A DNA stretch of 64,000 bases, taken from a virus. Taxonomy: Duplodnaviria; Caudoviricetes. Shown piece after piece: positions 4,770 to 56,110 of this stretch. The notes below the pieces were generated by a model that worked only from the letters and a program-made list of their open reading frames with translations, did no database searches and was not told the DNA's origin. The translations under genes were made by a program, and so were the position numbers. Location of the stretch: the IMG/VR virus record IMGVR_UViG_3300025362_000477, one strand, 5' to 3'. Numbering within the stretch: the first letter of the stretch is position 1; every line of letters starts with the position of its first letter.

Positions 4770-5234
4770 TTAATGAACGTCCAATACTTTTAAACAAAAA
4801 GATGGAATTACACCATCAGAACATTCAATAGCAGTCCGAGGTAAAGAATTTAAATCATCCTCATTAGCAATCATAGATGATAATTTTTTAGAGTATTTAA
4901 CTAATATCTTTTCAATATCAAACTCATCTAATGTACCCTTTTCCCATTCAAAATTAACCGGTTTAATAATAACCTTCTGATCTTTAATCTTTGATAATTT
5001 AGATGCAGATATTTTAACAGGAGTATGACTTTCCAAATATCCAGAATATTTATTTGGAGGTATCCTAGTAAAAAATGCAGTTATAGATCCTTCTTCTCCA
5101 CATGAAAGACCATTTTCCTTAATATCTTCTATTTCATCATTTGATATATAAGCATAAAGATATGGTTTTATTATAAGCATATCAATATTTGGATCACCTA
5201 GTACAATTTCTGAAATTATTTTATATCCGTTCAT
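4770..5234 (-). CDS. Hypothetical protein
   Basis: ORF track; SD supplied by the end of the upstream gene. Confidence 0.6.
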   Translation of the reverse strand: MNGYKIISEIVLGDPNIDMLIIKPYLYAYISNDEIEDIKENGLSCGEEGSITAFFTRIPPNKYSGYLESHTPVKISASKLSKIKDQKVIIKPVNFEWEKGTLDEFDIEKILVKYSKKLSSMIANEDDLNSLPRTAIECSDGVIPSFCLKVLDVH

Positions 5235-6150
5235 TATTAATTACCTCTTTAAATTTTTGTATAATAGGTTCTGAATCAGATAACCATTCAGATTCTTTGA
5301 TTCTAAAAACTATATAACCTAAATCATTATAAATTTCATTCTTTTTTTTATCATGTAATATGGCCCATGGTTTTCTATGATATGATTCATCAATTTCAAT
5401 TATTAAATCTAAATGTTCAACTAAACCATCAGGATAAAATCCACCTATAATCTGATTTCTCAAAATATTATTTTGCACAATAAACTGTAACTGCTCTATT
5501 ATGATGTCTTCATTCAATCCTTTACCAGGAAATCCAAATATGTTAAATCTTGCGAAATTTTTACGAGCAATATCTTTACATTTATCTGTTTTAGAATAAT
5601 TATCAACACCATATTTTTTAAGACATGATTTTTCAATTTTCAATCTAATAATATCTGAACCAAATCCAACTCCACCATATTTTTTTACACATGATAATTT
5701 TTGTTTTAATTTAACCTCTTCTGATTGATTCGGACTGGATGTACCATAATTTTCAAGTGATGTTTTTTTACTTTTATTCTGAATTATTTTAGATTGTAAC
5801 GGACACTCTACACCCCAATTCTTTATAGATGTCTTAATTTTTTTATGTTTTACAATAATTGATTGAGATGGGTTGTCTACTCCATATCGTTTATTACATG
5901 TTATTCTATTTTTTAACAAACATTCTTTGGATCTACATTGACATTTTCTACTACAGTAATCATAATACCCATACCGATAACCTTTAAAATTAGTCAAAGA
6001 TCCGCACGTCAAACATATTCCATCGTTTTTTGTTTTTATAAATTTATCATAATAATCTTTCATTCTAAATTTATGACATTGAAATAAATGTGCCGCAAAT
6101 CCCCTAAGATCATTTATTTCATATTCATCACATATTTTACATTTATCCAT
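5221..6150 (-). CDS. Zn-finger/KYG-repeat DUF559-like homing endonuclease (start revised to MDKCKIC)
   Basis: CxxC...HxxxH, CxxCG, CSxxC, KKYG repeats, FYPDG...IIEIDESYH. Confidence 0.75.
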   Translation of the reverse strand: MDKCKICDEYEINDLRGFAAHLFQCHKFRMKDYYDKFIKTKNDGICLTCGSLTNFKGYRYGYYDYCSRKCQCRSKECLLKNRITCNKRYGVDNPSQSIIVKHKKIKTSIKNWGVECPLQSKIIQNKSKKTSLENYGTSSPNQSEEVKLKQKLSCVKKYGGVGFGSDIIRLKIEKSCLKKYGVDNYSKTDKCKDIARKNFARFNIFGFPGKGLNEDIIIEQLQFIVQNNILRNQIIGGFYPDGLVEHLDLIIEIDESYHRKPWAILHDKKKNEIYNDLGYIVFRIKESEWLSDSEPIIQKFKEVINNERI

Positions 6151-6853
6151 GATCAAACACCACATTAGGAATAGCTGATCTTTCAAATTTCTCGATAGTT
6201 CTATCATAAATCTCTTTCCCATCTTGATATAGCATATCACCATTTAAAGGTATTTCCCCAAATGGAGTTTGAGTAGTACTATACTTTGATCTGAGTCTCC
6301 CGAGCATCATAAAGAACATGCCTAAGCACAGGTCAATAAAATTATCTTCCATTTCTGGATTTATAGATGATAATTCCGGATCATGAGATCTCTCATATTC
6401 TACAGTAGCTTTACCATGGAACTTTGGAGTTATGCGCAGACAATTCGGTGGAATAAACTCATGGCAGTATTTATAATTAGAAAACGGGGCTAATAAATTT
6501 GAATTAAATACACTTAAGTGCCATTCTGGTACTTCACTCGCTGACCAAGGACCCAAAAATGGATGACCATTCATAATAGTTGGAGATAAAGTTGGAATTA
6601 CATCTATTACCGTTTTTATTTCCCTCTCATCTGGATCTATTAAGTAAAACTCAGAAGAACGACCAGGAACTTTAAATGTATTATCGGCACAATCAAGAGT
6701 CAATCTCCATTTTTGAGGATAATAAAATGTAAATTTTCTTAAAGCATTTCTCTTTAAATAATCTATAATCTGTTCATCACTCTTTTCTAGCATCTGAAAC
6801 GGTAAAGATAATTCTTCTCTTACACGTTCTACGATAAAACCCCATGATAACAT
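6143..6853 (-). CDS. Putative neck/head-completion protein (T4 gp13-like)
   Basis: C-terminal FGEIPLNGDMLYQDGKEI resembles the gp13-family motif; promoter-like motif upstream. Confidence 0.55.
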   Translation of the reverse strand: MLSWGFIVERVREELSLPFQMLEKSDEQIIDYLKRNALRKFTFYYPQKWRLTLDCADNTFKVPGRSSEFYLIDPDEREIKTVIDVIPTLSPTIMNGHPFLGPWSASEVPEWHLSVFNSNLLAPFSNYKYCHEFIPPNCLRITPKFHGKATVEYERSHDPELSSINPEMEDNFIDLCLGMFFMMLGRLRSKYSTTQTPFGEIPLNGDMLYQDGKEIYDRTIEKFERSAIPNVVFDHG

Positions 6854-13912: not shown

Positions 13913-14448
13913 CCAGAAAAATTCTCCATTAAATCACCCAAACTAACTTCCTTTACTAATTTTTGTTCGGGTTTTTGTTTTTCCATTCTTTTCCGTTCTG
14001 CCTTAGTAGTTTTCTTTTTCTTCGGCTTATAAAATCCAAACATCTCATATATTGAATCTTTTTCATCGCTAACATCAATAAAATCAACTAACATGAACAA
14101 CTCTTCTTTTTTTAAGAAAGTATATTTCACTTTAATAGCATCAACCATTTTACTTTTTAATTTAGATCCTCTCTGAACGAATGGTGGTTTATATCCAGTT
14201 AGCTGTATACACTGTTTCATAAATTTGAATATCTCACATCTATCCATTGAGAATAATCCATAATTATTAAACGTTTCATTAATATAAAGATTAAAATGAC
14301 TCTGCTGAAAGTAATAAAGAATATACAATTGAGAAATAGATTTATCATTTACTACATCTTCAGGTATAAGGGTATCTTTACTCCCATCATTCAACCATCT
14401 AGATAGTAATGTATAATTTGATATTGGTTTTTTAGCTTTCGCCATCAC
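13909..14448 (-). CDS. Hypothetical protein, possibly second clamp-loader subunit (gp62-like)
   Basis: Size and helical pattern only. Confidence 0.3.
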   Translation of the reverse strand: MMAKAKKPISNYTLLSRWLNDGSKDTLIPEDVVNDKSISQLYILYYFQQSHFNLYINETFNNYGLFSMDRCEIFKFMKQCIQLTGYKPPFVQRGSKLKSKMVDAIKVKYTFLKKEELFMLVDFIDVSDEKDSIYEMFGFYKPKKKKTTKAERKRMEKQKPEQKLVKEVSLGDLMENFSG

Positions 14449-15190
14449 ACATCTCCCACCATTTTTTAATGTAAGCTATAGTATTACATGATCTAATTGT
14501 TGGATTAATTGGATTCCTAAATTCACGTTCATATTTATTTATAATTGAATGATTTGCATCTGATATAAATGGGACAAATATACCAATACTAAACAATACT
14601 GCACATTTTCTAAAGCATGCAGAACATTTCATACATTCATCAGTAATATATGAATATCTATCACCATCCATAAAATAATGATATGATTGTTTAGGTGTGG
14701 GATTAAAACAAGAAAAGGTATCTTTTAACAAATTCATCTTAAGTGCCGGATGATTACATGAATACCAACTGATCATATCAGATTTATAACAATTATAAAA
14801 GGGAGAATCGATCTCACAATAACTCTTATTGACATTTGTTAATAGACGTGATACATCTCTACATACTTCAAATTTATTGTCACCAATCCTATCTGATAGT
14901 GACCCACCCAACCATACTTTATCATAACCCAATGAATTCGCATATATAGTCATTAAAAGATTTCTATTTGGAATATGAGCATCATCGCATTCAATAGTTT
15001 GAAAATTAAGATCTTCACAGAATCTCATATTACTTATATTTAAAGATTTAATCTTTTCAATCTCATTCTTACAATATCGACCCTTATGATTGAAATATAA
15101 ACAATCAAATTGATGTCCATTATCTAAAAGATACTGTCTAGCGATAAAACTATCCAATCCACTGCTATAAAGTAAACATTCTTTTCTCAT
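14432..15190 (-). CDS. queC: QueC-like PP-loop ATPase (7-cyano-7-deazaguanine synthase family)
   Basis: LYSSGLDS PP-loop, HIPNRNLL, TFSC...CMKCSACFRK Zn motif. Confidence 0.8.
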   Translation of the reverse strand: MRKECLLYSSGLDSFIARQYLLDNGHQFDCLYFNHKGRYCKNEIEKIKSLNISNMRFCEDLNFQTIECDDAHIPNRNLLMTIYANSLGYDKVWLGGSLSDRIGDNKFEVCRDVSRLLTNVNKSYCEIDSPFYNCYKSDMISWYSCNHPALKMNLLKDTFSCFNPTPKQSYHYFMDGDRYSYITDECMKCSACFRKCAVLFSIGIFVPFISDANHSIINKYEREFRNPINPTIRSCNTIAYIKKWWEMCDGES

Positions 15191-16235
15191 TTATAATCTC
15201 CTTAAAAATATCTATTATATTATTTCTATTTTGTTCCCAGTCTCGTTTTTTGATTCTAAAAATTTGCAAACCTTCACTTAGATAATCATGATCCTTTCGA
15301 ATATCTTTATCTATATAAATTTCCCAACCATCTAAAAAATGTTGACTCTCATCAAATTCAATAACTAATTTTAACTCTTCAATATATCCATCTGGAAAAT
15401 ATCCAATTATTTTATGATTTCTTTGAATTTTTAAATCAGTATATTTTTGTAATTCGTTTAAACATTGTCTTTCATCATGACCTATTCGTGGACATAATGG
15501 TTCACCATTAAGTTTTTGAGCCTCAATAAAAGAAATAGCAGAATTCCTACATAACATTCGACCTTCATCAGTCTTAGTCCAATGATCAACTCTATAACGT
15601 AATCTAGATGATTCTTTTTTCTTTTCTTTCACATAAGGTATTTGGGAAACATTATTCACACCATAAATTATATTACATGTATTTTTAGCTTTTAATCTAG
15701 ATTTAACATAATCTTTCCTTAATGAACTATCTCTTAATTTTTTCTTTACTATTGATGATTTTGAAACATTATCAACTCCATATTTTTGAATGACAGTTTT
15801 TTTTATTTTTAATTGAATTTCCGCATTTCCCAGTGCAGATTTACAACCAAATCTTTTAATACATGTAATATATCCATTTTGTTTAATTTGATCATTCTGG
15901 TATGGCCGATTAACTCCATATCTATCTTGAAAAGTTTTGATCTGTTTAGACATTATCTCTTTATTTTTCAAATGATGTGTTTCACCATATCTTTGAATGT
16001 TAGTAGCTATATGTTTGTCTTTTACATCTTGAGAATTAGCAGAACATTTACGACTACAATATTTTGAATATCCACCAAGTCCATTAAATGTAGTATCGTT
16101 CCCACATTGAATGCATTTTCCATCACCCGGTTTCAATAAATATTGATCATAATAATCTTTAAGATGAATTTTATGAGTTCTAATAAGATGAGTTCCTAGA
16201 GCCTTATATTCTTTACCACACAGTTCACATTTCAT
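15165..16235 (-). CDS. Zn-finger/KYG-repeat DUF559-like homing endonuclease
   Basis: Same architecture as 5221..6150; GYFPDGYIEELKLVIEFDE. Confidence 0.75.
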   Translation of the reverse strand: MKCELCGKEYKALGTHLIRTHKIHLKDYYDQYLLKPGDGKCIQCGNDTTFNGLGGYSKYCSRKCSANSQDVKDKHIATNIQRYGETHHLKNKEIMSKQIKTFQDRYGVNRPYQNDQIKQNGYITCIKRFGCKSALGNAEIQLKIKKTVIQKYGVDNVSKSSIVKKKLRDSSLRKDYVKSRLKAKNTCNIIYGVNNVSQIPYVKEKKKESSRLRYRVDHWTKTDEGRMLCRNSAISFIEAQKLNGEPLCPRIGHDERQCLNELQKYTDLKIQRNHKIIGYFPDGYIEELKLVIEFDESQHFLDGWEIYIDKDIRKDHDYLSEGLQIFRIKKRDWEQNRNNIIDIFKEIINEKRMFTL

Positions 16236-16311: not shown

Positions 16312-16710
16312 TCACAACTGTAGAGATTTGATATATTTTACAGCATCATCTACATCAGAAACAATCATATGTACATGAGCTTCAATCCATAAATCTCCTT
16401 GACATATTTCATTAGGGTTTATAACAATAACAGGAATAGTATTTTGTAAGAATGCATGATATATTTCCATAGCTGTTCCAAAACTAGGTCTTTCAATATA
16501 AGCAATTACTACATCACTTGAATTGATTAATGCTTTATCTCTAGGAACCATAGTTAAATCACATTCATTTGAAGGATCGGGATCTATAAACTCATAACGA
16601 CCATCTAAATCATCTACAAAATTATCACACAATCTAGCTTTCCATGTATTAGCAGGTTCTTCTTCATATATAGTACCTGCTAAATAAACTCTTATCTTTT
16701 TATCATTCAT
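16312..16710 (-). CDS. Nucleoside 2-deoxyribosyltransferase-like protein
   Basis: VYLAG, D...I..SDVVIA, SFGTAMEI. Confidence 0.75.
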   Translation of the reverse strand: MNDKKIRVYLAGTIYEEEPANTWKARLCDNFVDDLDGRYEFIDPDPSNECDLTMVPRDKALINSSDVVIAYIERPSFGTAMEIYHAFLQNTIPVIVINPNEICQGDLWIEAHVHMIVSDVDDAVKYIKSLQL

Positions 16711-17009
16711 AATTCAATCCTTTGATTCAGCTCATTCAATGATGAGTTTGCATTATGATATCTCTGCCACCATAACATCATCGCTCTATTCGCAATGTCA
16801 TGGAGGTGCAAGCAATCTTGATCAAGGTGCTGTATAAAGGCATCAGCCTTTAAATCTTTAGCGATATGATCGGCATAAAAAGGGTCATCCCACCCTCGAT
16901 ATCCCTGCGCGGCCTTTTCGTATAACCTAAATCGCATATCTTCTGTGAAAAGCGATAATGCTTTGTCAATCTCTCGACACTCTTTTGTATATGTTTTTTG
17001 TCTTGGCAT
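16707..17009 (-). CDS. Small phage hypothetical protein (last gene of the array)
   Basis: ORF track; AGGAG SD directly after the attC-like site. Confidence 0.6.
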   Translation of the reverse strand: MPRQKTYTKECREIDKALSLFTEDMRFRLYEKAAQGYRGWDDPFYADHIAKDLKADAFIQHLDQDCLHLHDIANRAMMLWWQRYHNANSSLNELNQRIEL

Positions 17010-17031
17010 CTCTTTATTCTCCTGAACTTAA

Positions 17032-17110
17032 TCATAACAATTGAATGGAGAACTACCTCCAATCCGCTCGTTCCTCGCTCCTTTACGGAGTCTCATTCAT
17101 GGCGTTCAGT
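17032..17110 (-). repeat. Complete attC-like site E7
   Basis: ACTGAAC GCCATGAAT GAGA ... GAGCGAGGAACGAGCG ... TCTC CATTCAATT GTTATGA. Confidence 0.7.
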
Positions 17111-17364
17111 GTACTGAATGCAATCTGCACGAGCGATGGGTCCGCATCGCGGAACCGTGACGCCATCGTACCTTTCAGCCTTATTGTGACAACAAGCCTG
17201 CCGTGGTCTTCGTCCTCGAATTGAACCACATCACCAATGACGGGACGCACCGAACAAGATGCTGGACAAGTACCCAAAGGGGCCCTGTTGATCTCATTCA
17301 TAGCCTCTCCGCTTGTACACTCATTATACTTTTTCATAAATTCCCCCTTTGGGACTGTCAGCAT
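17083..17364 (-). CDS. Small cassette-like gene whose N- and C-termini are encoded by attC-like arms
   Basis: ORF track; likely start lies inside the E6 loop. Confidence 0.5.
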   Translation of the reverse strand: MLTVPKGEFMKKYNECTSGEAMNEINRAPLGTCPASCSVRPVIGDVVQFEDEDHGRLVVTIRLKGTMASRFRDADPSLVQIAFSTLNAMNETP

Positions 17365-17375
17365 TAGCGTTATAT
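17249..17375 (-). repeat. Complete attC-like site E6 (long loop containing an RBS and ATG)
   Basis: ATATAAC GCTAATGCT GACAGTCCCAAAGGG ... CCCTTTGGG[T]AC[T]TGTC[C]AGCATCTT GTTCGGT. Confidence 0.75.
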
Positions 17376-17571
17376 GATTATAAAATCCTTGAACTCATTG
17401 ATTATATAATCAGTTTGGCTCGTTCCTTTAATATCTTGCAAATCATCAATCACAAAACTGATTGTTTTTGTGCACCTTTGCAACATGTATTTCAATCGTA
17501 TTGCGGACTAACGCGATATGAATCGAGTCAGCGGTTAATGATTCTTTTAATTTCAAAATTTCTGTTAACAT
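17370..17571 (-). pseudogene. Frameshifted small cassette gene
   Basis: AGGA SD, then MLTEILKLKE...; stops after 41 codons, but deleting one A from the A5 run near 17465 extends it to the TAA within the E6 R'' box. Confidence 0.5.
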
Positions 17572-17589
17572 TCCTGCTCCCTCATTTTA

Positions 17590-17647
17590 AGATAACAAAA
17601 ACATGCACCGTACGGCGTACTGCCGGCATGCGATGTTGGTGTTATGT
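17590..17647 (-). repeat. Complete attC-like site E5
   Basis: ACATAAC ACCAACAT CGCATG...GTACGCCGTAC GGTG CATGTTTTT GTTATCT; shares its core with E2. Confidence 0.7.
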
Positions 17648-17874
17648 TATTTAATCTCAATTCGTTTGCCACAAAACGGGCAGAATTTCCAATCCTGTTC
17701 TTTTGGCCCGAAATCCTCAAACCAATAATTAGCACCATAGCTTGTTTGCCAGTCGTTGGATTCTGGTTGATTTTCCCAGACCCAACAATCTACTGAGCAA
17801 GTACCCGAATGGGCTGTCAGAGGGCAATCGTCACGTCTTATCATATCACCTTTATCATTGTATGTTATTCGCAT
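17647..17874 (-). CDS. Small Zn-ribbon protein (CPFCG)
   Basis: WKFCPFCGKRI C-terminus. Confidence 0.6.
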   Translation of the reverse strand: MRITYNDKGDMIRRDDCPLTAHSGTCSVDCWVWENQPESNDWQTSYGANYWFEDFGPKEQDWKFCPFCGKRIEIK

Positions 17875-18140
17875 TTCAACTCCTTGTCCCCTTTGGGACT
17901 GTCAGCATTAGTGTTGGGGAGAATTGGTGTCCGCCCGCACGCTCTCCAAAATGCATCCAGTTGTTCCAGCGTTCGGAACTTCATTTCTCCGTAGGTGTTA
18001 TCTGTTTCTTCGACGCACTCGATTACTGCATTAAGTGTGCCCCATAAACGGCAAGCTATTGTGCCTGATCCGCAAACGCCTCTAGTTGATTTTAAATCTT
18101 CCTTGGCATTTAATATTCGCAACTTTAATCTATCTTTCAT
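17865..18140 (-). CDS. Small cassette-like hypothetical protein
   Basis: GGAG SD; the C-terminus PNTNADSPKGD reads through the E4 left arm. Confidence 0.55.
   Translation of the reverse strand: MKDRLKLRILNAKEDLKSTRGVCGSGTIACRLWGTLNAVIECVEETDNTYGEMKFRTLEQLDAFWRACGRTPILPNTNADSPKGDKELKCE
17886..17919 (-). repeat. attC-like left arm only (E4), nearly identical to the left arm of E6
   Basis: CCCCAAC ACTAATGCT GACAGTCCCAAAGGGGAC. Confidence 0.6.
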
Positions 18141-18210
18141 AATATTCTCCTTTTGGGGCTGTTTTTGGTTGTTTGTTTTCGTTGCTCATAATTCATTCTC
18201 TCCGGTTGTG

Positions 18211-18246
18211 CTGGCTCCCGTTGTCCGGTGAGCCAGAGCGTTATGA
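18211..18246 (-). repeat. attC-like left arm only (E3)
   Basis: TCATAAC GCTCTGGCT CACCGG; overlaps the stop codon of the upstream gene. Confidence 0.55.
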
Positions 18247-18447
18247 ATTTTTCAACCCTCTAATTTTACCAGCAATCTCTCGCAGTTCATCCGATTTAAC
18301 TAAAAAATCACCTTCAACGTAAGCCATACTCTCTTTAATGGCTTTACGTTGCTCGTTTTCGTATTTCATGCCTTGAATATCGCAACATACCGCTGTGCCC
18401 TCAATTGCGAGTGCTTCAAATTCTAAAGCTCTTTCTTCTCTACTCAT
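18241..18447 (-). CDS. Small hypothetical protein (start revised to MSREERALE)
   Basis: AAGGAG SD immediately after E2. Confidence 0.6.
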   Translation of the reverse strand: MSREERALEFEALAIEGTAVCCDIQGMKYENEQRKAIKESMAYVEGDFLVKSDELREIAGKIRGLKNS

Positions 18448-18467
18448 ATTGTTTCTCCTTAATTTTA

Positions 18468-18532
18468 AGATAACAAGCACATGCACATGCACCGTACGGC
18501 GTACCACAGACAGGTGATGCTAGGCGTTGGGT
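18468..18532 (-). repeat. Complete attC-like site E2
   Basis: ACCCAAC GCCTAGCAT CACC...GTACGCCGTAC GGTG CATG(TGCATG)TGCTT GTTATCT; 6-bp internal duplication. Confidence 0.7.
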
Positions 18533-18804
18533 TTAATAACATCATCCAGCATCCACCTTGCAAGCGCGACTACAGAGCATCTCTCACAATGCGATACGGC
18601 TTGGCAGTCGCACGGTCTTGGCTCAAAGCGCGTTAGCAAAAATTCCGCTGTTCGCTTGGCTGCTATGTGCCAGTGGTCTGGATGAAACTGGCACATAGGG
18701 GTACACTTTCTTTCGCATCCAGCGCAATGCTCTGAATGCCTACCCAACAAGTCAGTCGAGCATACCTTTTGGGGCGTTTTCGGTTGTTCGTTTTCTTTAC
18801 TCAT
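18520..18804 (-). CDS. Small Cys-rich hypothetical protein (first gene of the array)
   Basis: ORF track; N-terminus VCSTDLLG is encoded by attC-like right arm E1. Confidence 0.6.
   Translation of the reverse strand: MSKENEQPKTPQKVCSTDLLGRHSEHCAGCERKCTPMCQFHPDHWHIAAKRTAEFLLTRFEPRPCDCQAVSHCERCSVVALARWMLDDVIKPNA
18742..18761 (-). repeat. attC-like right arm only (E1)
   Basis: GCTC GACTGACTT GTTGGGT (L box, 9 nt, GTT). Confidence 0.45.
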
Positions 18805-19598
18805 AATCTAAACGCTTCACTCGATAAAAAATTTGTTGCATTTTTTCCTTCTGAAAATTCATATATTGGGATATTATACTTAATACATATTGGTGTAAGA
18901 AGGATATTGGGGAACGTAAATAACTTCTTACTACTTGTAATATAATTAACGATCATTTGATTATCTTTTGTTATAACATGGTTGATATTAGTTAATTTCT
19001 TCAACCTTAATACATCAGAATAAGGCAGTATCTTATTAACATCTCCTATTAAACATATTATATAATCATTAAATCGTTTTGATATCTGTCCAATACATTT
19101 GAAATCTATTCTATTTCCGTTATTACTGTTTTCTAAATTAATAGTTATGAAATCTCTATGAAGTTTAATATCTTTTGTTTTATCTATATCAACAGATATT
19201 ATTTCTTTAACTTCAATCTCCTCTAATATAGTTGGTGCTTTTTCCTTTGGTGTTGGTATAACAGCTGGCCGATCTATTTTTTCATCTTCTGTTCTATTAT
19301 CAGACTTAATATAATTTTCAATACATGCACCATTATGTATATCTTTACCACATCGTTCACAAAGATTTTTCTTCTTTCTATAACTTATAATAGTTTCTTT
19401 TTTTCTTTCTCTTTTTAGATCCAATTGCACTTCTGGAGGTTCTGGTATCCCTCTCATATCAGACTTAATATAATTTTCAATACATTCACCTTCATGGATA
19501 TCTTTACCACATCGTTTACATAATCCTTTACGTTTTCGATGACCAATAATCACAGCTTTTCTAAGTCTTATTTTCTGTTCAGCTTTTGTTTCGCTCAT
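18801..19598 (-). CDS. Hypothetical protein with a duplicated CxxC-H-C Zn-ribbon module
   Basis: CKRCGKDIHEGECIENYIKSD / CERCGKDIHNGACIENYIKSD. Confidence 0.6.
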   Translation of the reverse strand: MSETKAEQKIRLRKAVIIGHRKRKGLCKRCGKDIHEGECIENYIKSDMRGIPEPPEVQLDLKRERKKETIISYRKKKNLCERCGKDIHNGACIENYIKSDNRTEDEKIDRPAVIPTPKEKAPTILEEIEVKEIISVDIDKTKDIKLHRDFITINLENSNNGNRIDFKCIGQISKRFNDYIICLIGDVNKILPYSDVLRLKKLTNINHVITKDNQMIVNYITSSKKLFTFPNILLTPICIKYNIPIYEFSEGKNATNFLSSEAFRL

Positions 19599-25896: not shown

Positions 25897-26901
25897 ATGA
25901 AAAAACAAATAACTTTTAATGATGTCTTGATTGAACCACAATATAGTGAAATAAAGTCCAGAAATGATGTGATATTAGATACCTATCTATCAGATAATTT
26001 AAAATTTTCATTACCGATATGTGGTGCTAATATGAAAAATATAACTGGATCTAAAATGGCTATTGAACTGTATAAAAATGGCGCCTTTGGTATTTTACAT
26101 AGATTTATGAGTATAGAAAAAAATGTAGAAGAATATTTAAAATGTAAAGATATTGCTTCAACGACATCAGTATCAATAGGAATTAAAGAAAATGAAAAAG
26201 ATCGATTTGTAGAATTGTATCTAAATGGTGCTAGAATCATAACAATAGATATTGCTCATGGACATTCATTGAATATGAAAAATATGATTCAATATATCAA
26301 AGAATATGATCAAGATATTACTGTTATTGCCGGTAATATAGCCACTGGGAGCGCTGCGATTGATTTATATAATTGGGGTGCTGATGTGATTAAGATTGGG
26401 ATAGGACCCTCCCCAGTATGTGAAACACGGAGAAATACTGGAGTAGGTGTATCTCAATTATATGCTTTAAAATCAATAGATAAAACTTTAAAGGATAATG
26501 ATATAAAAATTCCTAGAATTGCTGATGGGGGAATTAAATATGTTGGTGATATAAGTAAAGCTTTAAAGTATTCCGAAATGTGCATGCTCGGTAGTATGTT
26601 ATCTGGATATACTGAAACACCATGTAAATTCTTTCAGCGATTAAATGATCATGGTGAATTGGAATGGTATACTATGTATGGGGGTTCTGCATCAAGTGAA
26701 AATACAGGAAATTCTTCTTTCTCAGAAGGTCGAGTTCAAACTGTTCCATTAAGAGGAAAAGTAAAATATCAATTAAGAAAAATTGAAGATGGTTTGCGAT
26801 CAGCATTTTCTTATTCAAATTCAAAAAATTTATCAGAATATCAAGAAAAATGTAAATTAAATGAAATTAGTATAGCATCTATAAAGGAGAGTAAATTTTA
26901 A
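25897..26901 (+). CDS. GMP reductase / IMPDH-family protein (no CBS domains)
   Basis: TFNDVLIEP, IDIAHGHS, GNIAT, KIGIGPSPVCETR, IADGGI, MLGSML. Confidence 0.9.
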   Translation: MKKQITFNDVLIEPQYSEIKSRNDVILDTYLSDNLKFSLPICGANMKNITGSKMAIELYKNGAFGILHRFMSIEKNVEEYLKCKDIASTTSVSIGIKENEKDRFVELYLNGARIITIDIAHGHSLNMKNMIQYIKEYDQDITVIAGNIATGSAAIDLYNWGADVIKIGIGPSPVCETRRNTGVGVSQLYALKSIDKTLKDNDIKIPRIADGGIKYVGDISKALKYSEMCMLGSMLSGYTETPCKFFQRLNDHGELEWYTMYGGSASSENTGNSSFSEGRVQTVPLRGKVKYQLRKIEDGLRSAFSYSNSKNLSEYQEKCKLNEISIASIKESKF

Positions 26902-26902
26902 C

Positions 26903-27508
26903 ATGAAAGATTTTATAGTATTGGATACTGAAACCAAAAAACATGCTGATCAGATTCAGGGTGGATGGGATAATATTGAAAAGATGGAACTTGCAACTGA
27001 AGTTACATATTCATCTCAATTAGATCGATATGTTTTTTGGAAACCTTCTCAAAAAAAAGAATTATGCAAATATTTACATGATCAATTAGTGGTTACTTTT
27101 AATGGGATGATGTTTGATACTAAACTATTGTTAGGTAATGATAGAATTCTTCAAGATAATGGAGTGACTGAAAATGATAAATATAGATGGTATAATGCTG
27201 ATATTTACGTTGAGATTTGGCGTCACATTTTGAACATGGATCGGTCCAATTATAATATGATACTCAAAAAAATAGGTGAGCAGAAATTCCCTAGAAACGT
27301 ATTCAATTTAGAATCAGTTGCTAGCGCTACTCTAGGAATACCAAGAACTGGTAAAGGGGACCAAGCACCCGATCTCTTTCAGCAAGGAAAGTTGTTAGAG
27401 TTATTTCAATTTAATTTACAAGATGTGAGAATGATTAAATCATTGTATCAGTTTATACAAAAGAGACAATATATCATTTCTGGTAGTTTCGATGTTGTGT
27501 CTTTTTAA
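26903..27508 (+). CDS. RNase H-like (DEDD-type) exonuclease
   Basis: VLDTET, TFNGMMFD, NLQDV. Confidence 0.7.
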   Translation: MKDFIVLDTETKKHADQIQGGWDNIEKMELATEVTYSSQLDRYVFWKPSQKKELCKYLHDQLVVTFNGMMFDTKLLLGNDRILQDNGVTENDKYRWYNADIYVEIWRHILNMDRSNYNMILKKIGEQKFPRNVFNLESVASATLGIPRTGKGDQAPDLFQQGKLLELFQFNLQDVRMIKSLYQFIQKRQYIISGSFDVVSF

Positions 27509-45750: not shown

Positions 45751-47472
45751 TTATTTTTTCATTACAAATTTATAATTCCCACAATCATAAATCCATGCAT
45801 ATTTTTCAAGTGACATAATTTGAAATTCTGTTAATGATGGATCATATGAATTCATATTCACTAATCGTTTTTTACTAAAATTGAGTCGATGTTTTCTACC
45901 AGTAATTCCCTTTCCCCAATACCAATAATTTGGAGATGTAATATAATCCAAGTTAAAACCTAATTTGTAATATACATTTCCAATCGACCATCTCATATCA
46001 GCGAATGATATAATTTCAATCCATTCATTTTCTCGTTTAAATGTTTGTAATAATTTCGATGCTCCTCCATATATAATAGTATTTTCTAAACTACAAAATC
46101 TATCTAATTCATATCGACAAGTTTGATTTTTGCTACTGAATGTCATAACCGAAACTAATTTATTTTCATAATATAATCCATAATTAATTTGGGAAACTTT
46201 ATCTCCCTGTAAATGATATCTTTTCAAAAATTTAGATTTAGTTGTAAAATCAATATGTCTCACTTGACATTTCGATGCTCTAATCTTATGTAATATATTT
46301 GATTTCCCCAATATAGAAGCTAATCTAGATTTTACTAAATTTTTATTTAATATCCATTCATCTTCAAATATAGTAATTAATTGATATGATTTACTAGATG
46401 TTTCATGCATTTTATTTTTATGATAATTTTTATCTCGAAGATAAGGGGCATTTCCTCCACTACTATGGCACCATAACCCACAATATTCAATGGCTATTTT
46501 TCTTTCAGGTATGACAATATCTAATTCAAGTGGTGATATAATAGATCTATCATTATCAATAACAACTAAATCTAACGATCTAATATAATTTGAAATTTCT
46601 TTTTCTTGAAATGATGATCCATTATTGCGGGGATAGCATGTTGGACATACTCCTCCTCCTTGTTGGAATGAATTCCATAATATTTGAAAATCAGTATTAC
46701 ATTTATCACAATGTAAAGTTACATTTTCATGGGCATGAGTATAATCAGATACAAGATGATATCCTCTGGATTCGATTAATAAATTAACATATTTATAGAA
46801 TTCTTCAGTTTGTAAACTCTTTCGAACCTTTTCTCGATTCTCTTCTAAATACATTACGTTATCTACACCATATTTTAAAAGACATGTTGTTTTTCTTTTT
46901 TCTTGTGTCTCATAAGTTTGTGTAGACCATTCTTTTCCACAATTTTTTATATGGGTTTTCTTTTTCTTATCTGTTATACTTTTATGAGATAATCCATCAT
47001 CACCAAAATGTTTTTGAATAGTTTCTTTCTTTTTTAATTTCACAGAATCTAATTGATTAGTACTAGTGACTCCATATTTTTCAAAAACAGTTTTTTTAGC
47101 TTTATTCTTAACTTCAATTCTTTGCATTGGATTCTCTACTCCATATCTGGATAGATTTGTTTTTTTAATTTTTTCTCTATATTCATATGAGTATGGAAAA
47201 CATTTTGCACAATAAAGAGAATATCCATCAGATATAGATTTGAATCGCACTCGTGATATACATTTATCATTTAATGATGGACATGTAGGGGGAGTGATCA
47301 TATCATTTATAATTAAAAAAATAGATTCAGCCATACTCTTTATATTATTATCTATTTGAAATTTTTTAACTATTTCAAAAATATTGGGATGTTTAAATTT
47401 TAATTTTCTAATTATACCTTGTGGTTTAGTTTCTAAAATTAAATTTTTTAAAATAAGTATATTATCATTCAT
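45751..47472 (-). CDS. Hef-like homing endonuclease, antisense to the capsid gene
   Basis: KYG repeats, ELDI.IPE.KIAIEYCGLWCHS, ITIFEDEW, C-terminal FADMRWS.G.VY..LGF...YDCG. Confidence 0.8.
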   Translation of the reverse strand: MNDNILILKNLILETKPQGIIRKLKFKHPNIFEIVKKFQIDNNIKSMAESIFLIINDMITPPTCPSLNDKCISRVRFKSISDGYSLYCAKCFPYSYEYREKIKKTNLSRYGVENPMQRIEVKNKAKKTVFEKYGVTSTNQLDSVKLKKKETIQKHFGDDGLSHKSITDKKKKTHIKNCGKEWSTQTYETQEKRKTTCLLKYGVDNVMYLEENREKVRKSLQTEEFYKYVNLLIESRGYHLVSDYTHAHENVTLHCDKCNTDFQILWNSFQQGGGVCPTCYPRNNGSSFQEKEISNYIRSLDLVVIDNDRSIISPLELDIVIPERKIAIEYCGLWCHSSGGNAPYLRDKNYHKNKMHETSSKSYQLITIFEDEWILNKNLVKSRLASILGKSNILHKIRASKCQVRHIDFTTKSKFLKRYHLQGDKVSQINYGLYYENKLVSVMTFSSKNQTCRYELDRFCSLENTIIYGGASKLLQTFKRENEWIEIISFADMRWSIGNVYYKLGFNLDYITSPNYWYWGKGITGRKHRLNFSKKRLVNMNSYDPSLTEFQIMSLEKYAWIYDCGNYKFVMKK

Positions 47473-49755: not shown

Positions 49756-50231
49756 TGTATTACAATATTCATACTGAGAGTATATTTGCAAACTTACCAA
49801 AAACTCTTGCTGTTGCTGGTGGCGTGATAGCAAATCCGAATAATAATGATTATCATAAAGCGGGATGGTATACTTATATCCCGTTTGCCATACCGGTTGG
49901 TTACGTGGGTAATAATGCAACGAGACAATTCACTGTGGATAATGAATCATTTACAGTCACTGAGTCCATGGATGTTACTGTAGCACTCGAGCCTGTATAT
50001 ACAATGTCAAAGCTTAAATTGGTTCAGGCGTTGAGTTCTCTTGGTTTGCTTGATTCGTTTCTGGTGGCGTTACAAGCTGATGCGTCCGTAAAATTATTAT
50101 GGGATGTATCTGTTGTAATTGATAGTGATAACCCGCTAGTTATTGGGTTTATTACGGCGCACAAGGATTCACTGGGACTTAGTGATCAGGATGTTAAAGA
50201 TATGTTCGCAAGATGTGTATCAGATTTATAA
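49755..50231 (+). CDS. Putative tail-fibre-associated chaperone-like protein
   Basis: N-terminal NP....Y..AGWY motif; helical C-terminus; context. Confidence 0.4.
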   Translation: MYYNIHTESIFANLPKTLAVAGGVIANPNNNDYHKAGWYTYIPFAIPVGYVGNNATRQFTVDNESFTVTESMDVTVALEPVYTMSKLKLVQALSSLGLLDSFLVALQADASVKLLWDVSVVIDSDNPLVIGFITAHKDSLGLSDQDVKDMFARCVSDL

Positions 50232-50239
50232 GGTATATA

Positions 50240-51055
50240 ATGAATAAAAAAATCATAATCGGAATTGCGCTACTTTTGGTTTGTTGCACGGCTGGACGGC
50301 GGTTTGATATCGCGTGGCATTTACAGCTTGCGGCTGGGAGTGACGTGCCAGCATATCCAACAGACGGACTCGTTTTATGGTTGGATGGAATTTGGAATGC
50401 AGGGGTGAACACTACAGATGCTAACGCCACTAACTGGGTTGATCTCAGTGGAAGTGGCAATAATGCAACAGGCTACAACATGGCTGGTACTGGCGGCGGT
50501 TACTCCACCGTGTATAACGGATACGTGTATACTAATCCTGCATCGTACCATGAGGTCACAGGATTGCCTGCCAGTGGAATTATTGGCGGTAATGATGTAA
50601 CAATAGAAGTATGTTATAAGACTTTCGGGAGCACCGGAAATTCACAAGGCCCGTTGTCGTATCAGCCAAGCAATTTCGGTGCAGTCAATTCTCACTCTGT
50701 GTCTTTTGGTTATCAGCCCGATGTTACATACACGTACGTGGCACACGTAAACGCCCTCGTAAACTACCACGAAGTTAAAAAGACGGTGTGTTGGACCCAT
50801 AAATCCTCTGATGGAGCAGAAAAACTTTACATCGGTGGTGTTGAACGAGCATCAGATTCCTATGCTACACTCGATTTCCAGGCGATAAACTACTTATGGA
50901 TTGGCGGGGCTTGGAGATATATTTCAATGACACGTGGCGGCAGAGACCTGAACGGTTATGTCCAATCCGTCAGGGTATATGACCGGGTCTTGACCCCAGC
51001 AGAAGTAGCACAGAACGCACAGATTGATACTGACAGGTTTGCCAGTTTTGATTAA
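50240..51055 (+). CDS. LamG/concanavalin-like domain protein with a signal-like N-terminus
   Basis: GLVLWLDG, WVDLSGSGNNAT, LYIGG, NGYVQSVRVYDRVLT..EV. Confidence 0.8.
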   Translation: MNKKIIIGIALLLVCCTAGRRFDIAWHLQLAAGSDVPAYPTDGLVLWLDGIWNAGVNTTDANATNWVDLSGSGNNATGYNMAGTGGGYSTVYNGYVYTNPASYHEVTGLPASGIIGGNDVTIEVCYKTFGSTGNSQGPLSYQPSNFGAVNSHSVSFGYQPDVTYTYVAHVNALVNYHEVKKTVCWTHKSSDGAEKLYIGGVERASDSYATLDFQAINYLWIGGAWRYISMTRGGRDLNGYVQSVRVYDRVLTPAEVAQNAQIDTDRFASFD

Positions 51056-51307
51056 GGGATGTGACAAATGACTCAGATATCTGACCCATATGCAGGCGAG
51101 TTGGTAGACGCGGCAGATTGCTTGGTGGCTTAGCGAAACGGAACTCAAGCGGATATTCAAAAACTCGCATGAGGAAATTGGAAGAAGGCCGGTTGAGATT
51201 TACAAATAATTTGCCATGAGTGTGGCAGGATGTGGCCACTGGTCTTAATGGAGATTTCTACCAGTGTGCTACATGTTTTAAAACCGATTTAAGAAAGGCG
51301 TGGCAAA

Positions 51308-51571
51308 ATGGCAACGATTAACGACATGATTCTGCAACAGCTTAAAGACCTTAATTTGAAGGTTGATAACATTATGCGGAATGGATGCGCAAAGGCAGAA
51401 ACACATGATACTATCCAAAAAAACCAGAGCGAGATATTCACCAGAATAAATGCCATTGAGCACACGCAGGATGAAGGGCGCGGGAAGTTAATTTTAGGCT
51501 GTAGTATTATGTCCGCAATTGTTGGCGGTGGTATTGCCATGTTTTTTCAGTGGATTGGTAAAACGTTTTAG
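51308..51571 (+). CDS. Coiled-coil protein with a C-terminal TM helix (holin/XhlA-like)
   Basis: ILGCSIMSAIVGGGIAMFF. Confidence 0.45.
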   Translation: MATINDMILQQLKDLNLKVDNIMRNGCAKAETHDTIQKNQSEIFTRINAIEHTQDEGRGKLILGCSIMSAIVGGGIAMFFQWIGKTF

Positions 51572-51577
51572 AAAGGA

Positions 51578-51823
51578 TTGAAAATGAATAAATCAATTAT
51601 CAGATTACTTGCTATCTGCCTGCTCACGGCCTTTCTGGAGGGGTGCGTATCAACTCACTTGGTTACGCCTAACGGAACAAAGATTGACCGCAGGGCGTTC
51701 CTTTATCCATTTGACACCAGTGCAACGATTGATCCAGACACAGGCATTATATCGTTTGGCTATAACACCGATGGCGGTGGAGGCGCAAAAAATTCTTATA
51801 CTGGTGGCAATGGTGGAAGCTGA
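51578..51823 (+). CDS. Small lipoprotein
   Basis: Signal peptide with lipobox-like LEGC. Confidence 0.55.
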   Translation: MKMNKSIIRLLAICLLTAFLEGCVSTHLVTPNGTKIDRRAFLYPFDTSATIDPDTGIISFGYNTDGGGGAKNSYTGGNGGS

Positions 51824-51969
51824 ACTGTGATAATCCGGTATTTAACAAATTAAGCAGTTACAATCGGCAAAGATTAACCAAGGCAAAAAGGATTTGAAAT
51901 GATATTCTATTAAAGGAATATGAATAAATAAATTAATAAATACAAACTATAAATTGGAGATATATAAAT

Positions 51970-52134
51970 ATGAATGAAATTGATAAACTAAAAATTGCAT
52001 TATTTGATTTACATAATGAAATTCAAATTAAGAATAACATGTACAATCAAGGAATGACCCAGTTACAAAAACTGACATCTGAAGAGGAATCTAGAACTCC
52101 AGAAGTTCCAATAGTAAAAAACAACAAAAAATAA
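51970..52134 (+). CDS. Small coiled-coil protein (54 aa, not in the ORF track)
   Basis: GGAG SD; MNEIDKLKIALFDLHNEIQ... Confidence 0.45.
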   Translation: MNEIDKLKIALFDLHNEIQIKNNMYNQGMTQLQKLTSEEESRTPEVPIVKNNKK

Positions 52135-55181: not shown

Positions 55182-56110
55182 TCGATAATATTATAGAATG
55201 TCAGATATGTCATAAAAAAATGAAAAAAGTATCATTAAAAAATCATGTTTTTTCTGCTCATAAAATTAAAATTAAAGATTATTATGATAAATATTTAAAA
55301 AAAGATGATGAAGGTATATGCTATTGTGGTAATCAAACAAAATTTCTTAGTTTTTTATTTGGTTATAGAGAATTCTGTTCTGTGAATTGTCAGACAAAAT
55401 CTAAAGAAATTACAAAACCATTAAAAATATTATTTGAAAAAAATTATGAATGTATGATATGTAATAAAAAATTGACAACCATTAATGGTTTATCAAAACA
55501 TATTCGATTGATTCATAATATGACATCCATAATTTATTATGATAAATATTTAAAAAAAGATAATGAGGGATTGTGTCAATATTGTGGGAAAAAAACAAAG
55601 TTTTTAGGATTGAATAAAGGATATAATTCATATTGCTGTAATTCATGCGGTTCGCTAGATCCATTTATTCAAGACAAAAACCGAGAGACGAATCTTAAAA
55701 AATATGGTGAAACTAATTTTTCTAAAACAAGAAGAGGAAGATTGATAAGTAGAAATACATGTATTCATAGAATTCAAATTCAAAAAGAATGTGGTTATTC
55801 TACAGTACCTGCTATGGGAAAATATGAATCGAGTTGTTTAAATGAATTACAAAAATATACTGATTTCGAAATTAAAAGAAATCCAAAAATAATTGGATAT
55901 TTTCCTGATGGTTACATAAAAGAGTTAAAATTAATAATTGAGTTTGATGAATCTGTTCATTATGTAAATAACAAACTAACAAAAAAAGATCAATATCGGC
56001 AGAATGAATTAGAAAAATATTTAAAATGTAATTTTTATAGAATTAAAGAATCTGATTGGTTGAAAGATCCAAATACTATATTAGAAAAATTTCGGGAGGT
56101 AATTAAATGA
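55178..56110 (+). CDS. Zn-finger DUF559-like homing endonuclease (duplicated Zn module)
   Basis: Two CxxC..H/YYDKYLKKD modules; GYFPDGYIKELKLIIEFDE. Confidence 0.75.
   Translation: MIDNIIECQICHKKMKKVSLKNHVFSAHKIKIKDYYDKYLKKDDEGICYCGNQTKFLSFLFGYREFCSVNCQTKSKEITKPLKILFEKNYECMICNKKLTTINGLSKHIRLIHNMTSIIYYDKYLKKDNEGLCQYCGKKTKFLGLNKGYNSYCCNSCGSLDPFIQDKNRETNLKKYGETNFSKTRRGRLISRNTCIHRIQIQKECGYSTVPAMGKYESSCLNELQKYTDFEIKRNPKIIGYFPDGYIKELKLIIEFDESVHYVNNKLTKKDQYRQNELEKYLKCNFYRIKESDWLKDPNTILEKFREVIK

Follow-up and report, generated by a model that had tools for sequence, protein, structure and literature searches.

A GC-rich island of inverted cassette-like genes and attC-type sites in a salt-lake jumbo phage

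The island and its genes

The DNA analysed here (the window) is a 64-kb stretch of an AR9/PBS1-like jumbo phage of ~230 kb and 29% GC from salt-lake metagenomes. Positions 16748 to 18804 form an island of ~44% GC, compared with ~29% for the surrounding phage DNA, and 200-nt windows (0.40-0.54 GC within the island, 0.26-0.32 outside it) place sharp borders at ~16710-16750 and ~18800. The island contains seven ORFs, all small, co-oriented and on the minus strand, with imperfect AAC...GTT hairpins between them; the GC windows and the ORFs thus agree with the preliminary description on this point. The genes and borders are as follows.

16748-18804, minus strand: GC-rich island in which seven small ORFan genes and attC-type sites alternate, probably a CALIN (composition, ORFs, attC models)
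16745-16754, plus strand: left junction of the island, A↓TTATGA here and G↓TTATGA in contig L009 (alignment)
16707-17009, minus strand: gene 1, 100 aa
17083-17337, minus strand: gene 2, 84 aa from the ATG at 17337
17370-17571, minus strand: gene 3, frameshifted (ORFs 17446-17571 and 17370-17495)
17647-17874, minus strand: gene 4, 75 aa, C-terminus weakly zinc-ribbon-like
17865-18140, minus strand: gene 5, 91 aa
18131-18190, minus strand: mini-ORF of 19 codons (repeat D3)
18241-18447, minus strand: gene 6, 68 aa from the ATG at 18447
18520-18804, minus strand: gene 7, 94 aa, Cys-rich

Both ends of the island are joined to phage genes by ATGA stop/start overlaps. The start of gene 7 overlaps the stop of the AT-rich phage gene upstream, and the last 14 codons of gene 1 (16707-16747) are AT-rich local sequence that ends in the overlap with the next phage gene. 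The rest of the gene 1 module, from 17043 to ~16748, is 82% identical in DNA sequence to metagenome contigs L009 and L010, and the L009 homology stops at the canonical crossover point of an R' box, at the left junction. An intact homologue of the frameshifted gene 3 (72 aa, 85% DNA identity) is present in contig L060, and this homology stops exactly at CATATAA↓, ahead of the next AAC box. Gene 5 has homologues behind a C-type attC in L180 (81% aa identity) and behind an A-type attC in L073 (48%), and homologues of gene 7 (66-80%) are found in other metagenome contigs. The first 13 codons of the mini-ORF duplicate the gene 7 N-terminus (41 nt, 83%); it is what remains of a gene start once embedded in an attC, severed and fused to the gene 5 ribosome binding site (RBS). 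None of the seven genes belongs to a Pfam or PHROG family, and they are candidates for host-takeover or anti-defence functions.

A blastn search of the island against 50,697 phage records gave no match, and the two phage genes that flank it have no relatives in IMG/VR. The B-type attC core (below) has no exact match in IMG/VR, the A-type pattern found nothing beyond chance matches in IMG/VR and 185,579 reference genomes, and Rfam, at gathering and at permissive thresholds, returned nothing relevant and no attC family. Copies of the island in other contigs are 99.99-100% identical, and in four salt-lake runs and other contigs it is identical wherever found, which gives no indication that shuffling is still under way in this phage. 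A single "joint" among these runs and contigs was rejected as not credible, its sides being just 21 nt.

The attC-type sites

The hairpins between the genes are listed below with their scores in three covariance models, R1, R2 and R3, which are described in the next section.

17032-17110, plus strand: attC S1, 79 nt; R2 15.8 bits (E 0.17, window-wide), R3 30.2 bits (E 4e-4), R1 11.6 bits
17249-17375, plus strand: attC B1, 127 nt; R2 19.6 bits (E 0.017), R3 29.5 bits (E 6e-4), and fold
17590-17647, plus strand: attC A1, 58 nt, A-type; R3 46.2 bits (E 5e-8), R2 18.4 bits (E 0.036), R1 16 bits, and family alignment
17775-17919, plus strand: attC B2, degenerate, 145 nt, paralogue of B1; repeats D5 and D7, fold z +0.33
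18211-18246, plus strand: half site, R' side only, ...GAGC-GTTATGA; fold z -5.5
18468-18532, plus strand: attC A2, 65 nt, A-type; R3 37.1 bits (E 8.5e-6), R2 only 9.2 bits
18742-18761, plus strand: half site, R'' side, ACCCAAC-AAGTC..., within the gene 7 start; R2 8.3 bits

The complete sites have the layout of attC sites, namely an R box (AAC/GTT), an unpaired spacer of 4-5 nt per side, an L box with 1-3 extrahelical bases on one arm, and a variable loop. S1, for example, reads TCATAAC-AATTG-AATG[G]AGA...TCTCATTC-ATGGC-GTTCAGT on its top strand, and its spacers AATTG/ATGGC are of the same class as AATTC/TCAAGC of aadA1. The AAC/GTT triplets lie at the hairpin base in each of the five complete sites, and likewise throughout the family copies from six independent contigs. 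The full 7-nt R-box consensus is RYYYAAC/GTTRRRY (PMC5027507); ACCCAAC and GTTGGGT fit it perfectly and the other boxes are off at one or two positions (e.g. ACATAAC, GTTATCT), and control attCs from Vibrio, Shewanella and Pseudoalteromonas phage H101 show the same kind of deviation. The L-box stems measure 8-20 bp and the loops 12-61 nt; the B1 stem is ~20 bp, with the gene 2 RBS and start in the loop. The R boxes of B2 pair at 6/7 positions (CCCAAC/GTTGGG). The A-type family of A1 is common to six independent metagenome contigs (L009, L060, L073, L076, L124 and L152; L010 and L064 are overlapping copies of L009 and the three are counted once). Comparison with nine other family copies shows that the 6-bp duplication claimed for A2 is real (GCATGT, in one spacer). 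Stop codons do fall in or beside the AAC boxes, as had been reported; S1 encloses the gene 2 stop codon and A2 that of gene 7.

Two of the three half sites first proposed, 18211-18246 and 18742-18761, stand. The former is a strong GC hairpin immediately after the gene 6 stop, with a related complete site in L076, and the latter is a 7/7 complement of the A2 R' box GTTGGGT. The third, 17886-17919, proved to be no half site; it is one arm of the degenerate B2, the other arm of which lies in the gene 4 coding start.

The extrahelical bases (one in S1, three in B1, one in the A-type consensus) are all on the 3' arm of the gene-sense strand, and nearly all of 39 control attCs have the same asymmetry. 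An alternative fold of A1 allows its bulge to be drawn on the opposite arm; the A-type alignment keeps the L-box stem, places the bulge on the 3' arm and includes one covarying pair. The extra base had been given as a C in the right arm, which holds on the gene-sense strand, but on the plus strand it is a G in the left arm, and the suggestion that the bulge lies on the wrong arm was an effect of orientation: on the plus strand of the window the sites read as canonical top strands, and the inverted elements are the ORFs, whose coding strand is thus the recombinogenic bottom strand. In the strand assignment of the models all seven ORFs are on the bottom strand, unlike the classical cassette with its top-strand ORF upstream of its own attC, and the same is true of 18 of 18 attC matches in related contigs and of H101. 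It follows that, as in H101, no ORF has the orientation of a classical cassette, and that each attC is found at the 5' end of the gene that follows. The B-type sites enclose the RBS, start codon and first 29-33 codons of that gene (29 codons of gene 2 in B1; the start and 33 codons of gene 4 in B2).

Site folding energies are not better than those of shuffled sequences (z -1.8 to +1.0), and the attC case rests on architecture and family membership, not on thermodynamic stability. Chance similarity within a foreign GC-rich segment would explain such unremarkable single-site energies, as well as the ~60 matches per strand that a crude AAC...GTT stem scanner gives in the window. That scanner recovers all known attCs and the bulge asymmetry and scores B1 highest in the window, and it was dropped as a test for its poor specificity in AT-rich DNA. 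Against chance, cores of 19-24 nt are repeated exactly, the two near-identical core pairs being just as first described, found nowhere else in the window and expected 0 times by chance; the same sharply bounded elements are present in at least six independent contigs; and the covariance-model matches agree to the base with the sites claimed beforehand. We give chance almost no credence.

Recognition by covariance models

The three models are home-made, not those of IntegronFinder, and their E-values are rough. R1 is a Vibrio-only model scanned over 16 kb. R2 was trained on known attCs only (16 complete and one truncated Vibrio chromosomal-integron sites, four from H101 and three from class 1 integrons) and searched exhaustively on either strand of the full 64 kb. 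R3 derives exclusively from 15 elements of salt-lake metagenomes, whose alignment was fitted to the R2 structure. When 17 diverse known attCs were aligned with MAFFT, the 3' arms came out misaligned, and no model was built from the result.

The top three R2 matches in the window are B1, A1 and S1 (E 0.017-0.17), all full length and on the plus strand, and the next match has 10.3 bits; R1 also ranks these three first within its 16 kb. R2 with default speed filters finds no match in the window, and exhaustive mode alone found the sites. These known-attC scores are modest (16-20 bits) and the R2 training set includes H101 sites that resemble those of the island; with R2, 18468-18532 is at or below noise, as is 17775-17919, which the covariance models do not match. 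R3 finds the four complete sites 17032-17110, 17249-17375, 17590-17647 and 18468-18532 with E-values of 5e-8 to 6e-4 and nothing else in the window, so that the models return on the plus strand exactly the coordinates of the preliminary description. In the opposite direction R3 recognises attCs of class 1 integrons, the Shewanella M16-3 integron and CALIN, Vibrio, TJE1 and H101, and 21 of 21 matches are at attC positions in the correct orientation. The covariance-model check that had been proposed for these sites thus supports them in both directions.

An IntI profile HMM found nothing at E<=10 among the six-frame ORFs of the 64-kb window, in agreement with the earlier report of no integrase there, and IntI is likewise absent from the related contigs and from H101. 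The locus therefore lacks the make-up of a complete integron, with intI, attI and Pc beside the array, there being no IntI homologue in the window. It has that of a CALIN, a cluster of attC sites lacking an integrase (at least two attCs close together and no intI nearby; IntegronFinder definition as in PMC9892861), with 3-4 model-supported sites within 1.5 kb.

Cassette ends and module exchange

In the boxes that flank each gene (GTTxxxx and xxxxAAC, assigned by eye), 18 of the 24 variable positions are complementary in the island, where 12.0 are expected (p=0.023). In the relatives the count is 37/44 (p=5e-5) and in all arrays pooled 65/80 (p<1e-5), and canonical arrays follow the same rule.

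Three island genes recur with other neighbours in phage contigs: gene 1 in L009/L010 (82% DNA identity), gene 3 in L060 (85%) and gene 5 in L180 and L073. Module homology breaks at TTGTTAT, TATCATAA↓ and CATATAA↓, and the breaks coincide with the G↓TT and AA↓C boxes. The comparison of relatives for reordering that the preliminary description had called for thus yields the same genes in different neighbourhoods with breakpoints at GTT/AAC boxes. Its proposal that the phage captured the array is supported by the jump in GC and by two modules that are 82-85% identical in DNA to contigs of 42-46% GC; donor-like contigs range from 42 to 53% GC.

It might be supposed that the hairpins act in mRNA, through RNase III-type processing as between T7 early genes, at sites made up of a lower stem, a bubble and an upper stem, or by sequestering the RBS and start, the attC look being incidental. 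The coding strand is indeed the folding strand, its G.T pairs would be G.U in RNA, the B-type stems take in the RBS with the start codon in the loops, and the orientation is uniform. The canonical members of the family (Vibrio, Shewanella, class 1, TJE1) are however oriented opposite to transcription, so the shared feature is at the DNA level; complementarity of ends across a whole gene and homology breaks exactly at the boxes would be left unexplained; and there is no Rfam match. We regard a role in mRNA as the basis of these elements as very unlikely.

Homologous genes in different contigs have different attC cores both upstream and downstream, so both R boxes behave as breakpoints. IntI cleaves only one R box, and the breakpoints are therefore not explained by the single IntI crossover point alone. 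Breakpoints at both element ends, and a gene-to-core linkage that is not conserved, would fit phage-intrinsic linker or regulatory cassettes like the promoter-early stem-loops (PeSLs) of T4-type phages, with a role in expression and as dispersed short homologies for phage recombinases and with no integron integrase involved; the attC likeness would then reflect shared ancestry or convergence. Elements that stop ~20 nt ahead of the next start codon or contain the RBS, their one orientation relative to transcription in all salt-lake copies and the lack of IntI noted above (window, related contigs, H101) would also suit this explanation, as would the ERF/YqaJ (near distant gene 1 homologues), PD-(D/E)XK nuclease, DUF3164 and Mu F of related contigs; modular shuffling by PeSLs is documented (PMC2839356, PMC4122927). 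On the other side, mutual recognition with class 1, Vibrio and Shewanella attCs is unexpected for an unrelated regulatory motif, the complementary boxes around each gene have no role in a promoter or linker, and H101 sites of the same family are IntI1 substrates. Sigma-70-type promoter and terminator signals are also absent at the elements on the coding strand, where counts equal those of shuffled sequences, a test that is weak because it presumes the host promoter type. Overall, a PeSL-like origin seems to us rather unlikely.

We consider it probable, at roughly two chances in three, that the island represents integron-type gene cassettes clustered without an integrase (CALIN) in a jumbo phage. 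The integron-cassette-like array first suggested is favoured by two-way covariance support, H101-like layout and termini, complementary cassette ends, and recurring genes with breakpoints at boxes. The modules would have been assembled and delivered as folded single-stranded hairpins, presumably recombined by a host integron integrase at AA↓C on the bottom strand, and short-homology phage recombination at the conserved boxes may also have contributed. With its two half sites, one duplicated spacer and one frameshifted gene, the array in this phage now appears partly decayed, and it is probably fixed in the phage population.

A bolder proposal, which we put forward with considerable doubt and think quite improbable, is that a set of salt-lake and marine phages, this jumbo phage and H101 among them, keep their own pool of "backwards" cassettes in which the attC hairpin has been co-opted as a 5' gene module. 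Unrelated phages would then exchange modules at both R boxes via phage-borne or phage-recruited single-strand recombination, not by the one-point IntI/attI pathway.

As such a 5' module the attC hairpin would supply each gene with its RBS and start codon, and one attC family would add a conserved Cys-rich N-terminal peptide, G-T-C-P-x-x-C.

The sharing of attC types among at least six independent salt-lake contigs is direct comparative evidence of single-gene modules moving between unrelated phages with breakpoints at R boxes. An integron Pc could not drive the expression of inverted cassettes such as those of this phage lineage and H101, whose hairpins overlap the translation start signals. 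It becomes testable whether phages do no more than sample the cassettes of bacteria or operate a cassette economy themselves.

Comparison with known systems

The classical arrays compared are class 1 integrons and the Vibrio and Shewanella chromosomal integrons inside phages Va_90-11-286_p16 and M16-3. Like them, the island has AAC/GTT in its R''/R' boxes, a central spacer that is unpaired, extrahelical bases in the L box and a variable loop, and it also shares the complementarity of R'(n) to R''(n+1), the single small ORF per cassette and a stop codon that is often within the attC. Classical ORFs are on the top strand upstream of their own attC with an intI/attI platform adjoining, whereas the island ORFs are inverted and have no platform; footprints are perfect (7/7) in the former and 5-7/7 in the island, and gene-to-attC linkage between contigs is not conserved in the island family.

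The PeSLs of T4-type phages (PMC2839356, PMC4122927) are similar in that large virulent phages have, in their hyperplastic regions, small novel ORFs bordered by repeated intergenic stem-loop motifs, and modules are gained, lost and replaced with endpoints inside the motifs. A PeSL is defined as an early promoter plus a terminator-like stem-loop and acts via homologous recombination, whereas the island elements are members of the attC structural family and show neither a sigma-70 promoter nor a terminator signal.

The closest parallel is Pseudoalteromonas phage H101 (PH101, NC_029094; CALIN at ~75.9-78.0 kb). Integron-integrase recombination has been shown for attC sites of phages H101, TJE1 and P12002L, including two H101 sites that recombine with IntI1, with attI1 as the partner (Qi et al. 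2023, PMC9892861). H101 is likewise a virulent marine phage without IntI, with short attCs (57-77 nt), coding-strand termini ATAAC-GC...TT-GTTAT and small ORFans on the attC bottom strand, i.e. inverted cassettes, and the same models recognise its sites. The C-type and A-type elements have the termini and layout of the H101 attC bottom strands that IntI1 recombines with attI1 (ATAAC-GCTTG..., ...CACTT-GTTAT). The two differ in that H101 sites score 33-40 bits with Vibrio-type models and those of the island 10-20, in that two H101 sites are demonstrated substrates of IntI1 and those of the island putative ones, and in that the ORF starts ~55 nt past the site in H101 but ~20 nt past it, or inside it, in the island; the island is also a compositionally foreign, partly decayed array in a 29% GC jumbo phage. 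Phage attC clusters were first described in 2023, in 17 phages, and the island adds a jumbo phage to the known phage CALINs.

The integron-like array and its surroundings

From its sequence, the island is a compositionally foreign array of attC cassettes of the CALIN type (an attC cluster lacking an integrase) in a jumbo phage; covariance models, a cassette footprint and termini like those of Pseudoalteromonas phage H101 agree on this, so that the preliminary description of an integron-cassette-like array with attC-type hairpins in a phage stands. The window is a portion of a large virus and includes genes for a family B DNA polymerase, a DnaB-like helicase, a ribonucleotide reductase, a portal and a major head protein, the last sharing ~24% identity with its counterparts in jumbo phages PBS1, AR9 and phiR1-37. 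Its sequence recurs on contigs of up to 230 kb in salt-lake metagenomes. The GC content, ~29% overall, rises to 40–54% between ~16748 and 18804 with sharp edges. The seven small ORFs of this island are all on the minus strand, Pfam and PHROG gave no family for any of them, and the island joins AT-rich phage genes at both ends through ATGA stop/start overlaps. We note that an identical ATTATGA overlap with the adjoining AT-rich phage genes is present at 16707-16713 and 18801-18807, and that the inserted array is translationally coupled to the phage genes at either side.

Genes and attC sites of the island (window positions)
16707-17009, minus strand, gene 1
17032-17110, plus strand, complete attC site S1
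17083-17337, minus strand, gene 2
17249-17375, plus strand, complete attC site B1
17370-17571, minus strand, gene 3
17590-17647, plus strand, complete attC site A1
17647-17874, minus strand, gene 4
17775-17919, degenerate attC site B2
17865-18140, minus strand, gene 5
18211-18246, half site, R' side
18241-18447, minus strand, gene 6
18468-18532, plus strand, complete attC site A2
18520-18804, minus strand, gene 7
18742-18761, half site, R'' side, within gene 7

Several free-standing homing-endonuclease-like genes (DUF7487 + DUF559, or PHROG 3339) are scattered at 5221-6243, 15165-16235 and 45751-47472, one of them directly adjoining the island, and a 116-nt stretch within 15.2-15.4 kb is 88% identical to 55835-55950. 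Upstream of the island, a 265-aa gene contains a 64-nt internal direct repeat (19298-19361 and 19457-19520, 92%) that encodes a duplicated, zinc-ribbon-like motif, C-x-x-C-G-K-D-I-H. Elsewhere, the product of 25897-26901 belongs to the IMP dehydrogenase/GMP reductase family (Pfam E 8e-75), and gene 14432-15190 has a weak QueC-like match. A second GC-rich stretch (50000-52000, 40–45%) includes ORF 50213-51055, with a Laminin_G_3/concanavalin-like domain, and gave no attC match.

Covariance model searches

Three attC covariance models were built, and their E-values are rough because calibration was short. R1, whose training set was the 16 attCs in the Vibrio chromosomal integron of phage Va_90-11-286_p16, detects four H101 sites (E 1e-7 to 6e-6) and one C-type element (see below) on related salt-lake contig L124. 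It is narrow, scoring class 1 attCs at only 17–24 bits and missing most Shewanella and TJE1 sites; an exhaustive R1 search of 16 kb around the island ranks 17590-17647 first, 17032-17110 second and 17249-17375 third, all on the plus strand. R2 was rebuilt from confident R1 matches, all of them in known elements (16 complete Vibrio sites and one truncated copy, the four H101 sites and three class 1 sites), and it also picks up class 1, Shewanella M16-3 and TJE1 sites absent from its training set. Its three best matches in an exhaustive search of the whole window are B1, A1 and S1 (19.6, 18.4 and 15.8 bits; E 0.017, 0.036 and 0.17), with noise at or below 10.3 bits. On related contigs R2 gave 18 matches at E≤1, whose top strand is antisense to the genes at every locus with established gene orientation. 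R3, trained on 15 of these metagenome elements, none from the window or from known integrons, and with its alignment fitted to the R2 structure, recovers all four complete sites of the preliminary description (46.2, 37.1, 30.2 and 29.5 bits; E 5e-8 to 6e-4) without any further match in the window. In other sequences R3 detects genuine attCs of class 1 (aadA1, aadA2, cmlA and others), a Shewanella integron and CALIN, the Vibrio array, TJE1 and H101; its 21 matches in 279 kb are without exception at attC positions and correctly oriented.

Folded singly, the described sites do not exceed shuffled sequence in stability (z -1.8 to +1.0), and an Rfam search of the sequence found nothing. The two near-identical core pairs noticed earlier are exact, and unique within the window. 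An initial impression that the repeats are shared 5' leaders was changed by the related sequences.

Cassette footprint and orientation

Genuine arrays keep a footprint of the circular cassette that supplied both boxes: each site's R' box is complementary to the R'' box of the site after it, at 7/7 positions in the Vibrio and Shewanella arrays. With boxes assigned by eye, 18 of 24 of the island's variable positions (four per box) are complementary, versus 12.0 under permutation (p=0.023), and two pairs are perfect, one flanking gene 1 (GTTATGA/TCATAA(C)) and one flanking gene 7 (GTTGGGT/ACCCAAC). Among the relatives the count is 37/44 (p=5e-5), to which contig L076 contributes the unusual pairs GTTGGGC/GCCCAAC and GTTAGAT/ATCTAAC, and pooling of all arrays gives 65/80 (p<1e-5).

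In known attCs it is the L'' arm, on the 3' side of the bottom strand, that carries the extrahelical bases (PMC5027507), and our control attCs have the same asymmetry. The island's extra bases are on the 3' arm of the gene-sense strand (one C in S1, three bases in B1, one in the A-type consensus), and its spacers on that strand, AAC-GC... and ...TT-GTT, are the reverse complement of the canonical AAC-AA... and ...GC-GTT. The plus strand is therefore the top strand, the sites are canonical and the ORFs are inverted; the bulge previously placed on the opposite arm from classic attCs reflects this ORF inversion.

Element families and shared modules

A gene 1 homologue (82% DNA identity, GC 41–46%) is present on contigs L009 and L010, where an A-type element comes next, and a pattern scan of the metagenomes recovered more copies. 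This element is a sharply bounded 52-60-nt unit that starts with (AT)AAC at or just past the upstream stop codon and ends with GTTAT ~20 nt ahead of the next start codon. In six independent contigs its flanks are unrelated on either side, and these contigs also hold C-type and B-type elements with the same termini; phage genes on the A-type contigs include DUF3164, Mu F and a PD-(D/E)XK nuclease. Contigs of other salt-lake runs (X4, X5) have the A-type core and B-type arm (window 17593-17625 and 17341-17371) with one mismatch and unrelated flanks. Judging from the sequences, the attC families are spread beyond the loci compared here. The B-type 3' arm also codes for an N-terminal motif, G-T-C-P-A-S/P-C, conserved in otherwise unrelated small proteins (window 17249-17300 and 17780-17814; L076 ~790-870; contig L073 ~510-590); the same bases encode a DNA hairpin and a Cys-rich peptide. 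At 800-1648, L073 encodes a 282-aa pentapeptide-repeat protein in cassette-like position behind a C-type attC.

The gene 1 module common to L009 runs from TTGTTAT to TATCATAA, past which a T in the window replaces the C of the next AAC box; here the island has its left end. In the case of gene 3, the module common to contig L060 stops at CATATAA, and gene 5 homologues lie behind a C-type site in contig L180 and behind an A-type site in L073. Homologous genes are therefore bordered by different attC cores on each side. Both R boxes act as breakpoints, for which the single IntI crossover point alone is insufficient; an explanation also has to invoke either recombination through short homology at the conserved boxes or the use of either strand. 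A profile of four IntI proteins, which recovers the Vibrio IntIA control, found no IntI at E≤10 in six-frame ORFs of the window, related contigs and H101, in line with the earlier statement that the window holds no integrase.

Probable decay and fixation of the array

Compared with an intact 72-aa homologue, gene 3 is interrupted by a frameshift, and is probably a pseudogene in this phage; the lesion, near 17460, is a frameshift or a 17-nt deletion versus the intact L060 copy. Site A2 has a 6-nt duplication, B2 is degenerate, and mini-ORF 18131-18190 duplicates the start of gene 7. The duplicated 41 nt (83% identical; 18131-18190 region and 18767-18807) encode MS(N/K)EN(K/E)QPKT, one copy being the gene 7 start and the other a 19-codon mini-ORF that runs into the gene 5 ribosome binding site and start. 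All other island-bearing contigs are 99.99–100% identical, and contigs from four runs gave no credible island variant.

Comparison with other attC clusters

Integrase-less attC clusters have been reported in 17 phages, and five of six virulent-phage sites tested, including both H101 sites, recombined with attI1 under IntI1 (Qi et al. 2023, PMC9892861). The supplementary table of that paper gives bottom strands; those of H101, ATAAC-GCTTG-...-CACTT-GTTAT and ATAAC-GCC...-CTT-GTTATCC (PMC9892861), have the same termini and spacers as our C-type and A-type elements. In the H101 genome these published strands lie on the same strand as small genes gp132-gp137. The models support at least four sites in H101 (among them 27308-27384 of our H101 sequence L169, or H101 77308-77384, and L169 27931-27987), of which two are near-identical copies, and the top strand of all of them is opposite to gp132-gp137, an inversion not described in the sections of Qi et al. 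2023 consulted here (PMC9892861). The island thus adds another member to the published phage CALINs, and is notable for its inverted ORFs, for translation starts inside attC sites, and for a demonstrable pool of modules common to salt-lake phages. Its arrangement is inverted like that of H101; the arrays of TJE1, Vibrio, Shewanella and class 1 integrons follow the classical layout.
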